A stretch of 32,675 nucleotides of DNA from a virus. Taxonomy: Duplodnaviria > Heunggongvirae > Uroviricota > Caudoviricetes. Position 1 is the stretch's first letter; each line of letters starts with the position of its first letter. The notes under the pieces were generated by a model that worked only from the letters and a program-made list of their open reading frames with translations, had not been told where the DNA came from and did no database searches. Shown one piece after another: positions 13,283-19,169 of the stretch. The position numbers and the translations under genes were made by a program. Location of the stretch: IMG/VR virus record IMGVR_UViG_2663763159_000003, positions 1 through 32,675 of that record; one strand, written 5' to 3'.

Positions 13283-13429
13283 AATCGGTTTTACCTATCA
13301 ATCATTTAATCACATTCCAAAAAAAAGTTTTCAAACCTGCGGCGATGCGAGGAAAGGTCAGGCGGCGGTACTGAGCAGCCAGGGCTGCAGGGATTTGACC
13401 CACCCCTCCCCTACAGATGGGAACTGTTA

Positions 13430-13780
13430 TCAATTGATGCGTTCGCGCGCTGTTTTTGCTTTATGGCAGGGCCAGCACAGACTCTGCAGGTTACTGTCTG
13501 CATCCGAGCCACCATGAGCTTTCGGAATGATGTGGTCCACAGTTCTGGCTTCAACGGCTCTCCCATTGCGCAGGCAGTTCTGACACAGATCATTATCACG
13601 CTTCAGTATGCGCGCACGTATGGCATCCCATTTCGAGCCATAGCCACGCTGGTGGCGACTCAGTCCGCGCTGATGCTGTACCCATCCTTCGCCACGATGT
13701 TTATCGCAGTAACCAGAACTGTCTGTGGTTGTACCTGCACATCCACGTTTACGGCAGGCTCGTGGGATTAGTGCTGGCAT
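13430..13780 (-). CDS. HNH endonuclease (terminase-associated)
   Basis: 116 aa with Cys pairs, DHIIP.AHGG and CWPCH motifs. Confidence 0.85.
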   Translation of the reverse strand: MPALIPRACRKRGCAGTTTDSSGYCDKHRGEGWVQHQRGLSRHQRGYGSKWDAIRARILKRDNDLCQNCLRNGRAVEARTVDHIIPKAHGGSDADSNLQSLCWPCHKAKTARERIN

Positions 13781-13918
13781 GTTTCGCCCTTATATAAATC
13801 AAAAGTGACCTGCATTGAGTATCTCCATGAAATAGATTTGCCGCTGATATGAGCCAGATCAATAGACTTCATGAGCTAACGGGTGTAGATATTACTTTTT
13901 ACTTCAGAGGGTTAACTC

Positions 13919-14458
13919 ATGGATATTAAGGATAAAATCAATACCATTTTGTTATGTGACATTGCCATCCACCTAGGTATCGAAACTGATATTGATCCAC
14001 AGCTTGTAAAATATGCTGTGTCATCTGGTAATGATTGGGTTATGAAGGCCGAATATTCACATTTGGATGTTGATGAACCAAGTAAAGAAGATCGTGATTT
14101 TGTTACTGCTGTCTTGAATATGTACCGCGGACTTTCCAATGCTTTCAGGAAACTTAGTGATGACGAGCAAAAAGAATTAGTCCGTGACCATCATCTAAAA
14201 ATACATGATGGGGAAATTCAGCTCCCAGGTTTCGACGGTCATAATGAATGCGATTACTTCAGTATCATTGAGGCATATCAGAAAATTGATCGCTTCCCCG
14301 AACAGAAACAGCCCATTGCCAATACTCATTCACGTACAGAACATCTCTATAACGCAATGCTTGATGAGTTTAAGAAAATTGACGCTGTAAATCGAAGCTG
14401 GGATTTATCGAAGGAAGAACTGGCATCCATTCTTTCCACAGCTCCACGCAGTTTCTAA
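13919..14458 (+). CDS. YfbU-family (UPF0304) protein, opposite-strand moron in the bor slot
   Basis: 179 aa; motif pattern (VLNMYRGL, GFDGHNE.DYF, LSKEEL) aligns by recall with E. coli YfbU; GAGGG RBS; AT-rich. Confidence 0.6.
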   Translation: MDIKDKINTILLCDIAIHLGIETDIDPQLVKYAVSSGNDWVMKAEYSHLDVDEPSKEDRDFVTAVLNMYRGLSNAFRKLSDDEQKELVRDHHLKIHDGEIQLPGFDGHNECDYFSIIEAYQKIDRFPEQKQPIANTHSRTEHLYNAMLDEFKKIDAVNRSWDLSKEELASILSTAPRSF

Positions 14459-14463
14459 GTGCT

Positions 14464-14730
14464 TTAGGCGGGTTTCCAACCCGCCTTATTATGCTCGTAT
14501 ATAGAGAAGGAAGCACCCAAATTAACCAGCGCGGATTTCTTTTCCTCAATACGGCTGTTAAGTTCAGCAACTGCATGCGGGCGTATGGCCTCAAGAAAAG
14601 CACTATATTGATAGGCAGACTGGATTGTCACACCAAGCCCTGCACCACTTTCCAGTATACCTTTCTGTCGCTGTAGCTCTTTCATCTCGTTATAGATGTA
14701 ATGTGCGTTACTTAGGTTTTCTACGTTCAC
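14464..14730 (-). CDS. Hypothetical 88-aa protein convergent with the YfbU-family gene
   Basis: ORF only; no recognised motif; could be non-coding. Confidence 0.3.
   Translation of the reverse strand: MNVENLSNAHYIYNEMKELQRQKGILESGAGLGVTIQSAYQYSAFLEAIRPHAVAELNSRIEEKKSALVNLGASFSIYEHNKAGWKPA
14469..14493 (+). terminator. Hairpin terminator downstream of the YfbU-family gene
   Basis: ggcgggtttccaacccgcc followed by ttatta; perfect 6-bp stem. Confidence 0.4.
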
Positions 14731-14885
14731 GCCCTAAGTTCTTCCTGCAGTTAGCCTGCACTGATTTGTTATGCGCCAATATGTCCCGCTTCGTCTGTTG
14801 CATTATCATAAGTAATAGCGTAGGTTGACACCTTGGCTCTCTTTCGCCACCGGCGAATCTTTAGCGGATTATCCTTGGCCGGTTT

Positions 14886-15368
14886 TTATCTGAGACATTG
14901 CTCACGAATGTATAGCTGTGCCCCTTCCAGTTGCTTCTGCATCGTCATCAACCGTTCTCTGAGGGTGAAATAATCCCGTTCAGCGGTGTCTGCCAGTCTG
15001 GGGCTGGTTGCATTATCCACGCTGGTGGGTCCGGTGGCTTCACGCACGGCTGCGGAGCAACTGGCATTGACCCGCAGGCGCTTACGACCAGCGGCAACAT
15101 CAGCGCGCAGAGTTTCATTTTCAGCTTTCGCATTGGCTAATTCTCTCGAGTACTTTGCATCGAGCGCAGCAACATCACGCTGACGCTGCTGCATGTCAGC
15201 GATGGTGGCGGTCAGCTGCTTCAGCTCACTGACTTTTTTATCACGCTGTTCTTTGTAGGTGATGGCGTTATCACGGTAATGATTGACCGCCCACGACAGG
15301 CAGACGATGATGCAGATAACCAGAGCATAAATAATCGCGGCGACTCTGCTCACTGATCTATTCCCCAA
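14886..15368 (-). CDS. Rz: Inner-membrane spanin Rz (i-spanin)
   Basis: N-terminal TM helix then coiled coil; embedded Rz1 in +1 frame; follows endolysin. Confidence 0.85.
14948..15133 (-). CDS. Rz1: Outer-membrane lipoprotein spanin Rz1 (o-spanin), embedded in Rz
   Basis: Signal peptide with lipobox LVVSAC, proline-rich mature part. Confidence 0.8.
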
Positions 15369-15883
15369 CAGGCTAATGCGCTTTCCTGGTCACGACGAAT
15401 AACCTGTCCATAGCAGTTATTTGAACGTATGCGGCAATCGCGCCCACCATCTTTTATCCACCAGCGAATCGCCTCGCATGCGCCCTTACGATCACCAGCA
15501 TTCAGCCGCTTATAAAACGTCGATGGAAAACACTTACCGGGGCCAATGTTATAGGGACAAAATGACGCGATACCCGCTTTTTGTGGTTCGGTCAGTGGTA
15601 CTTTAATATTGCGCTCCACCCATGCCAGCGCCTTATCACGCTCAATGGCGTTGACCTGGTCGCATTTTTCCTTCGACAGTTTCATACCGGGAAAAACGGG
15701 TTTTCCATCCACCATCGTGGCACCCCGACAGATGGTCCAGATGCCGGAACCATCGCGGTATGCCGTTGTGTGGTTACCTTCTTTTTCATCCAGAAACTGG
15801 TCGAGAATATCAGGCGCGGGCGCACCGACGGCAATCAGTGCCAGAACGGCAGCCGACAGGCCGTATCTGATTTTTGCGTTCAT
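15350..15883 (-). CDS. R: SAR endolysin (T4-lysozyme family)
   Basis: N-terminal signal-arrest-release helix [15 protein letters not shown], catalytic spacing E-x8-D-x5-T. Confidence 0.9.
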
Positions 15884-15946
15884 GGATATTTATCAGGATT
15901 TATCGGTTTCTGCCCACGGACAGGTTTATCTGTTCCGGTCAGTGAC

Positions 15947-16297
15947 TTAAGGTTGTGATTCCGGAGGAGTCTTCAGAGAACCAGTAATTCTTCCTGGTAG
16001 CTTTCCTTTGTAGGTTATCCACACATTCTGCGCCTCTAAAATTACGGGGCGCTTTTCCGGCGACTGCTCATCCCCTTCACATAACCCGGCAGCAACATCC
16101 AGGAAGACCTGTCTGATGCTCCTTCTGGCTGCTGCCTCATAAAACTCCAGCGCGGCACCTTCAACACGGTCCAGCGAGATGTCCAGGTCAAAAATTTCGC
16201 CGTCAAAGCGTTTTTTGTCCCGTAACGCTAAAGTTACCGTAACTTTATTCTCAAAATTGCGGATCCCTTTCACAATCAGTTCATAGTTTTGAGTCAT
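15947..16297 (-). CDS. Hypothetical 116-aa protein inserted between holin and endolysin
   Basis: ORF with ATG start 5 nt downstream of holin stop; no TM segment; no recognised motif. Confidence 0.65.
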   Translation of the reverse strand: MTQNYELIVKGIRNFENKVTVTLALRDKKRFDGEIFDLDISLDRVEGAALEFYEAAARRSIRQVFLDVAAGLCEGDEQSPEKRPVILEAQNVWITYKGKLPGRITGSLKTPPESQP

Positions 16298-16301
16298 TGA
16301 A

Positions 16302-16517
16302 TTACTCTCCCCGTGCAGCCTTACGCTTGTCTTCTCTGATTTTGAAGTACAGATTTGTCAGATAAGTCAGGAAGCCCAGAACCAGACTCCCCAGTACACC
16401 AATCGCAGCCCACTGTGACGGACTGACCTGATCCAACCACTGCAAAAACCAGTATCCCGCACTACCAGCGGATGTTCCGTAGGCAATGCCAGTTGAGATT
16501 TTGTCCATTGATTTCAT
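16302..16517 (-). CDS. S: Pinholin, phage 21 S-type
   Basis: 71 aa, matches phage 21 S as recalled ([23 protein letters not shown]...), two TM segments, dual-start MKSM. Confidence 0.9.
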
Positions 16518-16635
16518 AGCAACGCCTCCGCCAGTAACGGATTGCGTAGTTCTTATATTGGGAAGGGAGAAAAAGAAGACCGCAGCATAACTATCACTGA
16601 TGAATTCAGGACATCCAGTGGCTACGGCTCAGTTA

Positions 16636-16711
16636 TGGTGCTGGTTAACGGACTTGAACCGCTACCCATTCGCTTACAAGGCGACCGCTCTACCATTGGA
16701 GCTAAACCAGC
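16636..16711 (-). tRNA. tRNA-Thr(UGU)-like, 76 nt with encoded CCA
   Basis: Hand-folded cloverleaf: acceptor GCUGGUU/AACCAGC, D-arm GCUC-CAAUGGUA-GAGC, anticodon loop CUUGUAA, T-arm AGCGG-UUCAAGU-CCGUU. Confidence 0.6.
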
Positions 16712-16716
16712 ATATT

Positions 16717-16791
16717 TGGCGGGACAGCGTGGACTCGAACCACGATAAGAAGGTTAACAGCCTTCCGTAATGACCTTTATACGACTGACCC
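16717..16791 (-). tRNA. tRNA-Asn(GUU)-like, 75 nt, deviant D-arm (possibly degenerate)
   Basis: Anticodon arm GAAGG-CUGUUAA-CCUUC, T-arm CGUGG-UUCGAGU-CCACG, acceptor with one U-U mismatch, CCA encoded. Confidence 0.45.
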
Positions 16792-16793
16792 AA

Positions 16794-16882
16794 ATAAAAA
16801 AAGCCACCGTTGCAACTTAAGAGTCACTAACGGCAGCTTATGCGAATAGTGTTGCTCATTTGCTCAATGATGTCAACACGTT
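16794..16882 (-). promoter_or_regulatory. Late promoter / qut / tR'-like region downstream of Q
   Basis: Position only; imperfect hairpin plus 7-U run (plus 16796..16836); no promoter hexamers confidently assigned. Confidence 0.3.
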
Positions 16883-17428
16883 CTATGCTACATGTTTAAT
16901 TTTCTCTACACGTTTCCGGTTTTTAAACGCACTATCCAGAACCGGGTAAATCATAAACAACGAGGCATTGAGGATTTCGTCAACTTCCCGTCGACAGGTT
17001 GCGAGCGATGGTTTTTGAATGCGCCCGCCGCCCCGGCATAACATCTTGCGAGGTCTTGCGACGCGATGATAGTAAGATGCAATGGCGTGCTTGGAAGAGC
17101 CGTGGGCGTAGTAGCTGAGGAGGATGCCAAAGGCTTTCTTGTCAATGTACATGACGGAATCGACGACCTGAGAAATCAACATTCCATCATCATCATTACA
17201 CATTGGCCTTGTCATAACTCTTCCCGGCTCTACGCTCTCCATGAACTTAGCTATTACGCTGCTCATGCGCTTTTCCAGACGACCTGAATAAACCCATGCG
17301 CCCCACAGTTCAAGCCAGCCATTCAGCCACTCGTGCTGTTCTTTGGTGAGGTTTAGTTCTCTTATGCCCATGCGCCTTCTCCCTTGTGATCTGGAATGGT
17401 TTTTACTGAGAACGTCATGCGGCCTCAC
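16883..17428 (-). CDS. Late-gene antiterminator Q (non-λ Q family)
   Basis: 181 aa; WGAW...C.DDD...YY pattern shared with E. coli prophage Q homologues as recalled; position between ninG and lysis genes. Confidence 0.75.
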
Positions 17429-18029
17429 TTCTGCTGTTTCGCAGGTCTTTGAGTTTCTGCTGATACTCCGCCTTGATGGCCCTGCACTCTTCGACAGTCC
17501 AGCGATGGCGGTTATGGTTTGATTCGATTTCGTCTACTGCTTCCTGCCCGATGCGGCTAATCAGTTCGACGCGATACGGAACGAGATTTCCGCTTTTGTG
17601 CTGGTTGCACACCACGCATTGCTTGTGAATATTGCGTTCATCAAATCGGAGTTGAGGTGCCGCAGCAGTTGTCCGGTAATGTCCGGCATCCCACTGAGCA
17701 GACGTGAGCGTTCCGCAAGAGATACATGGTAAGTCGCGGTCTCTTTCTCTGATGAAGGCGTTTACGGCTTGTTGGGCTTGTTTAATCCAGTAACTGCGGG
17801 GCTTTAAGGCGAGTTTTCTAATCTTAAGTTTATCTTTCTGTTTCTGCTCCTCTCGTCGTCGTTTCTTCTCTGCTGCTTTTTCCGCTTTTTCGCGTTCTTT
17901 ACTTCGTCGTTCGAGTGCTATCTTGGTTCCACACTCTGGAGAGCACCACCACTGATTAGCGAATGCAGGGTGAAACCATTCCCGACATTCATCGTTTTTA
18001 CATCGTCTTCGCGCTGGTTTAGCCATCAT
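17415..18029 (-). CDS. ninG: NinG (Rap) recombination-associated endonuclease
   Basis: 204 aa, Cys-rich ends and Lys/Glu-rich linker, matches λ NinG as recalled. Confidence 0.9.
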
Positions 18030-18231
18030 CTTCTTCCTCGTGCATCGAGCTATTCGAATCGCTCATCAGCTCTGCACAGCAGTACTCACACACGTGAACT
18101 TCCAGCACATGCAGCTTCTGACCGCAATTAGCGCACGTTAAAGCCCGCTCGACGCTTTCTTGTTCGTAACTTCGATTTGGGTCAATCACCTTGTATTCCT
18201 CGCACGATGTCTTAGCCACCGGATATCCCAC
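18019..18231 (-). CDS. ninF: NinF
   Basis: C-terminal [33 protein letters not shown] matches λ NinF as recalled. Confidence 0.8.
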
Positions 18232-18368
18232 AGGTGAGCCGTGTAGTTGAAGGTTTTTACGTCAGATTCTTTTGGGATTGGCTTGCGTTTATTTCTGGAG
18301 CGTTTCGTTGGAAGGTATTTGCAGTTTTCGCAGATGATGTCGGTGATACTTCGTCGCTGTCGTCTCAT
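18186..18368 (-). CDS. ninE: NinE
   Basis: Start taken at internal Met ([19 protein letters not shown]...), matching λ NinE as recalled. Confidence 0.75.
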
Positions 18369-18805
18369 GCCGCCCTGTCTCCCCATCGCGCTTTCCATTC
18401 GAGAGCCAGTCGCGCTTCGTCCGACCACTTAACGCCACGCTCTGTACCGAATGCCTGTATAAGCTCTAATAGCTCCGCAAATTCGCTTACACGCATCCTG
18501 CTGGTTGACTGGCCTATTACCACAAAGCCATTCCCGGCAAGGTTAGGAACAACATCCTGCTGCTTTAATGCTGCGGTAAACACACACTTCCAGCTTTCTG
18601 CATCCAGCCAGCGACCATGCCATTCAACCTGACGAGAGACGTCACCAAGGCAAGCCCAAAGCTTTCGATTCTGGTCTAAGCTGCGGTTGCGTTCCTGAAT
18701 GGTTACTACGATTGGTTTGGTTGGGTCTGGAAGAATTTGCTGTACCGCGTGAATAGCGTTTTGCTGATGTGCTGGAGATCGAATTTCAAAGGTTAGTTTT
18801 TTCAT
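18365..18805 (-). CDS. ninB: NinB (Orf) recombination mediator
   Basis: Start at [15 protein letters not shown]..., matches λ NinB as recalled. Confidence 0.9.
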
Positions 18806-18878
18806 GACTTCCCTCTCCCCCAAATAAAAAGGCCTGCGATTACCAGCAGGCCTGTTATTAGCTCAGTGATGTAGATGG

Positions 18879-19169
18879 TCATCTTTTAACTCCATATACC
18901 GCCAATACCCGTTTCATCGCGGCACTCTGGCGACACTCCTTAAAAATCAGGTTCGTGCTCATCTTTCCTTCCCGTTCTTCCCTGGTAGCAAACCGGTAAT
19001 ACACCGTTCGCCAGACCTTACCTTCGATAACCAGAAGACCTGCCCGTGCCATTTTAGCCGCGGCCTGATTTATGCTGGTTACTGTTGCGCCTGTTAGCGC
19101 GGCAACGTCCGGCGCACAGAAGCTATTATGCGTCCCCAGGTAATGAATAATTGCCTCTTTGCCCGTCAT
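18879..19169 (-). CDS. ren: Ren
   Basis: 96 aa, matches λ Ren as recalled. Confidence 0.9.
   Translation of the reverse strand: MTGKEAIIHYLGTHNSFCAPDVAALTGATVTSINQAAAKMARAGLLVIEGKVWRTVYYRFATREEREGKMSTNLIFKECRQSAAMKRVLAVYGVKR

Follow-up and report, generated by a model that had tools for sequence, protein, structure and literature searches.

The window analyzed here is the whole IMG/VR virus record IMGVR_UViG_2663763159_000003 (Caudoviricetes; 32,675 nucleotides, nt), and its lysis cassette lies on the minus strand. The gene for an S21-type class II holin (S) is separated from that for a lysozyme of 177 amino acids (aa; R) by an interval of 418 nt (15884-16301), of which 351 nt are occupied by an open reading frame (ORF) of 116 aa. 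A first-pass annotation, made from the letters alone, had described this ORF as an extra gene inserted between the pinholin and the endolysin. The profile search showed a real gene, and one that is far from extra. The ORF matched the Pfam family PF07041 (DUF1327) at 145.1 bits (cut-off 25, E 7.5e-43), with residues 1-112 aligned to positions 1-92 of the 93-position model, and PHROGs 406, 2091, 1085, 2735 and 34145, all labelled 'unknown function', shared its first 77-113 residues. Further, positions 13400-18900 of the window were 100% identical to five complete Escherichia coli chromosomes, in which the Prokaryotic Genome Annotation Pipeline (PGAP) names the identical protein 'YdfR family protein' (RefSeq WP_000193280.1) and its neighbours 'class II holin family protein', 'lysozyme' and 'lysis protein'. 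That the ORF is a YdfR/DUF1327 gene is close to certain; neither the gene nor its family or position is new, since annotations of all three exist and E. coli K-12 has them too.

The start of the gene is as had been claimed. On the minus strand, the junction between S and ydfR reads ...GGGGAGAG TAA TTCA ATG, which leaves 4 nt after the holin stop, so that the ATG begins at the fifth. The encoded protein is small and acidic (13 kDa, isoelectric point (pI) 5.5; 5.3 for its N-terminal domain). Its highest 19-residue mean of Kyte-Doolittle hydropathy was 0.69, compared with 1.87 for the lysozyme N-terminus and 1.72 for the holin, in line with the earlier statement that it carries neither a transmembrane segment nor a signal peptide; lacking a hydrophobic segment, the product is presumably cytoplasmic. 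NCBIfam held no model for the ORF, 0 families of the PADLOC defence models were matched at E <= 1, sequence and profile searches of the ORF against PDB chains were empty, and a Foldseek search of its structural model against BFVD returned nothing at E <= 0.001. A foreign origin was also considered from base composition and set aside, as the GC content of the ORF (47.6%, vs. 49-53% in its neighbours) was uninformative. Likewise, a metagenomic repeat protein of 3128 aa (P0162) was discarded as a relative: it matched residues 7-58 of the ORF six times (32% identity), around the motif ...FELDVSQAEIVGSELEFF..., and its E value of 4.8e-08 arose through these six weak repeats, which we judged to be a repeat-amplified chance similarity.

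To place the gene among related cassettes, we surveyed the 80 IMG/VR loci with holins closest to that of the window (90-100% identical). Seven were uninformative: in six the contig ends no more than ~330 nt from the holin gene, and in the other (L001) the 2.2 kb downstream of the holin hold neither YdfR nor an endolysin. Among the 73 informative loci, 46 had, at this junction, a homologue of YdfR and then a 177-aa lysozyme with 91-100% identity to that of the window. The remaining 27 (holin 92-100% identical) had no YdfR, and an endolysin of the phage-21/DLP12 type (MPPSLRKAVAAAIGGG...; 31-35% identical to the R protein of the window) whose ATG overlaps the S stop (TAATG). Mixed arrangements were not found among the 73. 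The statement in the first-pass annotation that phage-21-type cassettes run from holin to endolysin with nothing between them was thus accurate for those 27 loci, while the description of the ORF as an insertion was not, as ydfR is a standard gene of Qin-type cassettes.

The wider distribution points the same way. DNA matches to the ORF were present in 4349 of 5426 complete E. coli genomes (~80%), covering at least 80% of its length in 1904 of these. A tblastn search of 50,697 phage records matched 101 genomes, all of them lambdoid Escherichia or Shiga toxin (Stx) phages, including H-19B, BP-4795, phage 86, mEp460 and many Stx1a and Stx2c phages, with no match in P1 or T4. Even so, the family is very small (320 clusters at 90% identity among 5.8 billion, and 65 at 50% identity among 1.84 billion) and, across 185,579 species representatives, it was confined to Escherichia and Shigella apart from two metagenome-assembled genomes (Veillonella parvula and a Bacillota bacterium), whose matches were 71-81% identical to the E. 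coli gene and are probably mis-binned contigs. Few E. coli prophage genes that lack an established function are as common as YdfR: of the earlier proviso that it might prove a standard, characterised member of S21-type cassettes, the first half holds, and well characterised it is not.

The features of the cassette and its surroundings are collected in the table. A scan of the minus strand from the Q gene to Rz revealed no site resembling a promoter or terminator, which is compatible with co-transcription from the late promoter and agrees with the proposal that ydfR is placed to be co-expressed with the lysis genes. The lysozyme has a hydrophobic, Ala/Gly/Leu-rich segment at residues ~8-22 that resembles a signal anchor (hydropathy peak at residue 9), for which signal-arrest-release (SAR) behaviour is predicted, and carries the motif E35-x8-D44-x5-T50. 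It is 93.8% identical to K-12 RrrQ and 91.5% to VT2-Sakai R, but only 31-35% to R21. A dual-start holin of the S21 family and an Rz gene with embedded Rz1 are both present, as in phage-21-type cassettes, but S is not directly followed by R; because ydfR and a spacer hold the two apart, the cassette is a Qin-type variant. In the prophage of strain 4/4 (L081), which has an identical ydfR, the late-operon leader contains tRNA-Ile, Lys, Thr and Gly together with a different Q, and is therefore itself mosaic.

Table. Features of the lysis region of the window, with positions given for the whole stretch.
Feature	Position	Strand	Description and source
ydfR-family gene (DUF1327)	15947-16297	minus	116 aa plus stop, ATG start; ORF list, Pfam, PHROGs, PGAP
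Conserved N-terminal domain	16082-16297	minus	Residues 1-72, three beta strands then one helix; AlphaFold2, conservation, dN/dS (ratio of nonsynonymous to synonymous substitution rates)
Variable C-terminal tail	15947-16081	minus	Residues 73-116, module ...EKRPVILEAQNVWITYKGKLPGRITGSLKTPP...; pLDDT (predicted local distance difference test) 52-63
ydfR ribosome-binding site	16305-16312	minus	GGGGAGAG, GGAG-type, within the last holin codons; sequence
Spacer, ydfR stop to lysozyme start	15884-15946	minus	63 nt
S21-type class II holin gene (pinholin family)	16302-16517	minus	71 aa, dual start MKSMDKIS; PF04971, E 1.4e-35; PHROG holin families
177-aa lysozyme gene (RrrQ / 933W R type)	15350-15883	minus	PF00959, Phage_lysozyme
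Rz spanin gene	14886-15353	minus	PF03245 (Phage_lysis), E 1.6e-49; start and 'lysis protein' from PGAP; longest ORF in the ORF list begins at TTG, 15368
Rz1 lipoprotein ORF inside Rz	14948-15133	minus	61 aa, ...VVSAC lipobox-like motif; ORF list
Late antiterminator Q gene, upstream of the cassette	16883-17371	minus	PF06530; PGAP 'antiterminator Q family protein'
tRNA-Thr(TGT) and tRNA-Asn(GTT), late-operon leader between Q and holin genes	16636-16791	minus	ARAGORN, PGAP
Small hypothetical gene, between Rz and packaging genes	14464-14730	minus	Annotation of identical genomes
YfbU-family gene, between Rz and packaging genes	13919-14458	plus	Opposes the late operon; annotation of identical genomes
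HNH endonuclease gene, between Rz and packaging genes	13430-13780	minus	Annotation of identical genomes

The protein consists of a conserved and a variable part. An AlphaFold2 model built with 26 diverse members had a pLDDT of 80-95 over residues 1-72, with strands at 5-14, 18-27 and 34-43 and a helix at 50-71; Y5, E6, L7, Y53, E54 and A57 were invariant across these members. An ORF of at least 72 aa was intact in all 122 related loci, homologues of 31-39% identity retained the same 72-residue unit, and dN/dS over the first 72 codons was 0.15-0.6, on the whole ~0.2-0.4, and ~0.3 in the most diverged pairs (dS up to 1.7). By these codon comparisons, the N-terminal domain is under purifying selection. 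The tails of relatives, on the other hand, were unrelated or recombined, with short modules recurring in different orders and family lengths of 72, 104, 114, 116, 174, 183, 243 and 268 aa; in one member (P0147) the tail module of the window stands behind a different N-terminus. None of the tails of the long members (174-287 aa) held a Pfam domain, and they gave no Rosetta-stone hint of function. Two entries (P0072 and P0093; 196 and 169 aa) showed an internally duplicated DUF1327 domain, and three (P0015, P0032 and P0039; 173-187 aa) were fusions of holin and DUF1327 (PF04971 plus PF07041); most of these entries lie on short contigs and could have arisen through errors of assembly or gene calling.

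With these data, the idea that the ORF is a non-functional remnant or a spurious frame, debris of recombination between modules that stays open by chance, becomes highly improbable. A poorly predicted and variable tail, an unremarkable GC content and a frameshift that splits the tail from the N-terminal domain in three loci (L177-L179) would all suit such a remnant. They are set against the strength of the Pfam match, the integrity of the N-terminal domain in every locus with a dN/dS well below 1 out to dS ~1.7, the retention of the 72-residue unit in distant homologues, and the behaviour of the K-12 protein, which accumulates on expression and gives specific interactions. For the N-terminal domain, the remnant explanation is effectively refuted.

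We then considered whether ydfR belongs to the lysis machinery. The strict dichotomy among the surveyed loci had suggested that ydfR might be needed as an adaptor joining an S21 pinholin to a 177-aa lysozyme (R177); this idea was rejected, because phages 933W and VT2-Sakai pair both directly, with an S21-family holin (76% identical), 4 nt, and then R177 (91.5% identical), and no ydfR. Since S21 works with R21 and with R177 in cassettes that lack ydfR, neither partner nor their combination needs the gene. In line with this, the S21 holin was found in 438 phage records and ydfR in 101. An S21 holin and YdfR did stand upstream of all 76 close lysozyme relatives with enough upstream sequence; however, this linkage is no proof of coupling, because recombination in either flank regenerates only the same arrangements. 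Judged from these gene arrangements, ydfR is likely to be a dispensable accessory rather than a core component of lysis.

A modulatory role in lysis, as a regulator of timing or an accessory factor of the endolysin, is a separate proposal and, in our estimate, an unlikely one. In trans, the target of cytoplasmic YdfR would be either the pinholin, at its charged C-terminal tail, or the nascent lysozyme with its signal anchor. In cis, ydfR would capture the strong ribosome-binding site with which S ends, so that R is left with a weak leader and the R:S ratio falls. The location of the gene speaks for such a role, as nearly all close relatives lie exactly between the holin and the 177-aa lysozyme, including those 76 lysozyme relatives, and the position is retained even behind a different holin family.

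The translation signals are also suggestive of an effect in cis. The last ~28 nt before the lysozyme ATG (15884-15911, minus strand; AACCGATAAATCCTGATAAATATCC) are AU-rich, contain a GATAAAT direct repeat and have no Shine-Dalgarno motif. In an alignment of eleven cassettes, this leader was conserved in nine of the ten of the ydfR type; K-12 Qin, where R overlaps the ydfR stop instead of having a leader, differs, and the 377-nt class keeps only the last ~16 nt. In VT2-Sakai/933W, by contrast, GGGGAGAG at the end of S lies directly before the lysozyme ATG and serves R. Comparing this conserved leader with the use of a GGAG site where ydfR is absent, we consider that the presence of ydfR probably alters how R is translated. 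A structured RNA in the spacer was looked for and dismissed, since the 63 nt folded no better than shuffled sequences (z -0.31) and contained no terminator-like site.

Other observations do not favour a lysis function. The linkage is accounted for by flanking homology alone, S21 functions with either type of endolysin in the absence of ydfR, and distant members of the family are found in tail clusters and after Rz. When regarded as a possible antiholin or holin-binding regulator, the protein had no transmembrane segment or signal sequence and resembled no phage protein other than members of the YdfR family. Overproduction of K-12 YdfR left growth unimpaired (Göpel et al., RNA Biol 2026, PMC13232886). 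In favour of one, a Keio ydfR mutant was scored in the supplement of an envelope-integrity screen, although it is absent from the text of that paper (Paradis-Bleau 2014, PMC3879167); we suspect that its phenotype is a polar effect on rrrQ, because the kan cassette sits just upstream of that gene. Among the roles that the first-pass annotation had offered, then, a hitch-hiking or accessory gene fits best, and nothing found here supports a lysis regulator or an endolysin accessory factor.

Members of the family outside the S-R slot indicate how mobile the gene has been. A 72-aa protein (P0176, 31% identical) is encoded between tail genes M and L (locus L172), a 94-aa protein (P0171, 39% identical) between tail genes I and J (L173:3001-3506), and a 71-aa member after Rz (L175:503-1328). 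In L177-L179, a 72-aa member follows a Phage_holin_2_3 holin and precedes R177 (L177:2177-3225), its tail having been moved by the frameshift into a second, overlapping ORF. Moreover, in 34 of 67 distinct ydfR-to-R segments, and after the out-of-slot members, the DUF1327 gene is directly followed by a convergent ORF of 74-186 aa that is antisense to the late operon (e.g., L010:4687-4968, L015:4531-4803, L029:4720-4980, L035:1066-1362 and L074:5037-5351). Within the S-R slot these partner ORFs are of 86-104 aa and their 3' end abuts or overlaps that of ydfR; they fall into PHROGs 2411, 2572, 1853, 25324 and 6806, all of unknown function. A 72-aa DUF1327 protein paired with a PHROG 25324 member occurs both in the S-R slot (L035:823-1362) and in the tail M/L slot (L172:449-1001), and as the two partners are 61% identical, at least one such pair has moved as a unit. 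The variety of slots and the partners point to a late-operon gene that is accessory and portable, and not to a component dedicated to lysis.

Taken further, the same observations could mean that ydfR is cargo unrelated to lysis and to RNase E, namely one half of a portable two-gene unit acting, for example, in phage-phage or phage-host conflict, with the copy in the window representing a solo form whose partner was lost or never present. Convergent partners in recognised PHROGs, the pair found in two slots, the convergent neighbours of the tail I/J and post-Rz members, the hypervariable and modular tails and the restriction of the family to Escherichia and Shigella would all be in keeping with such a unit. 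However, no PADLOC defence model was matched, and the partners come from several unrelated families, so that the slot might be no more than a hot spot for insertions. Purifying selection on the N-terminal domain is also seen in cassettes without a partner, which include those of the window, of K-12 and of many others. Further, and unlike classical lysogenic-conversion morons, ydfR is almost silent in the K-12 lysogen (Göpel et al., PMC13232886). On these grounds we regard the conflict-cargo explanation as rather improbable.

The one functional lead comes from a direct study of the K-12 protein, in which residues 1-72 of YdfR were recovered in a two-hybrid screen, signals with Rne(1-597) were obtained, and Strep-YdfR carried along both Rne(1-598) and nucleic acid that resisted DNase (Göpel et al., PMC13232886). 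Over residues 1-74, which cover the RNase E-interacting segment, the window protein shares 81% identity and 96% similarity with K-12 YdfR. On balance, we lean towards the reading that the ORF is a genuine YdfR-family gene and an optional late-operon accessory of Escherichia lambdoid prophages. According to this reading, ydfR would share with S, R and Rz/Rz1 a transcript that starts at the Q-dependent late promoter, and would be translated from the ribosome-binding site within the end of S, so that the protein is made late in infection. It would take no part in hole formation or murein degradation. Instead, its N-terminal domain may bind the catalytic half of RNase E, as reported for the K-12 orthologue, and adjust how RNA is degraded or processed at a late stage of the lytic cycle. 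By analogy with K-12, such an RNase E- or RNA-directed activity of the window protein is a possibility that we put forward tentatively.

Several points weigh against this reading. The gene mostly keeps its place inside the lysis cassette, which leaves room for a modulatory lysis role. The RNase E evidence concerns K-12 YdfR only and consists of two-hybrid signals and in vivo co-purification, and overproduction of the protein changed few transcripts (Göpel et al., PMC13232886). The contact may be RNA-bridged, because the co-purification had no nuclease control for YdfR, and an acidic domain is unusual for an RNA binder.

A more specific version, doubtful in our view, is that the 72-residue domain serves as a prophage RNA/RNase E adaptor steering RNase E on late-operon RNA. 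Its target might be the AU-rich lysozyme leader without a Shine-Dalgarno motif, or the overlapping 3' ends where a convergent cargo gene follows ydfR. If it were true, ~80% of E. coli genomes would carry an unrecognised phage regulator of the main RNA-decay enzyme of the host. In any case, the comparative picture of a gene dispensable for lysis, with a portable core domain, swappable tails and frequent convergent partners, together with the 2026 report on RNase E, narrows the experiments needed to settle the function of ydfR. For this window, it corrects an expectation, as the ORF is an ordinary Qin-type YdfR gene rather than a new insertion.

Several known systems can be compared with the one described here. 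Phage modulators of RNase E include T4 Srd, T7 gp0.7 and phiKZ Dip, of which Srd is reported to act on the N-terminal half of the enzyme. If the K-12 result transfers, YdfR would be, like them, a protein of phage or prophage origin in contact with RNase E as the lytic cycle proceeds; it differs in being encoded in the late operon, not early, and in having no similarity to any PDB chain. Soluble or periplasmic regulators of lysis timing are encoded beside the holins of P1 (LydB) and T4 (RI). YdfR is likewise a small non-enzymatic protein whose gene adjoins that of a holin and would be co-expressed with it, but members of its family are also found away from holins, and none was matched by tblastn in P1 or T4.

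The closest parallels are other lambdoid cassettes. The Qin prophage of K-12, from which the name YdfR derives (UniProt P76160), has the same order, essQ (S21-type holin)-ydfR-rrrQ (177-aa lysozyme)-rzpQ, and the same 4-nt junction after the holin stop. Its YdfR tail is unrelated (103 aa with ...SEKVESYLQHQYSFKIENPANKH..., vs. 116 aa with ...EKRPVILEAQNVWITYKGKLPGRITGSLKTPP... in the window), and its ydfR overlaps the rrrQ start where the window has the 63-nt spacer. BP-4795 (ORF47) as well as H-19B and Stx1a/Stx2c phages (in which the S-R ORF is unannotated) share the order S21-type holin-YdfR (114 aa)-R177, the combination of N-terminal domain and tail module, and a spacer with the same conserved R leader. 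Their YdfR is only 63% identical overall to that of the window (dS ~1.7), however, and they carry an ant gene between R and Rz, which the window does not. In phage 21/DLP12, the holin belongs to the same family (with 92-100% identity in IMG/VR loci of this type) and Rz/Rz1 follow as in the window, but ydfR is absent and the 165-aa R21 endolysin (MPPSLRKAVAAAIGGG...) starts at an ATG overlapping the S stop. Finally, 933W/VT2-Sakai has the same GGGGAGAG-TAA end of S as the window and provides a natural 'deletion' control, in which the holin/endolysin pair does not require ydfR.

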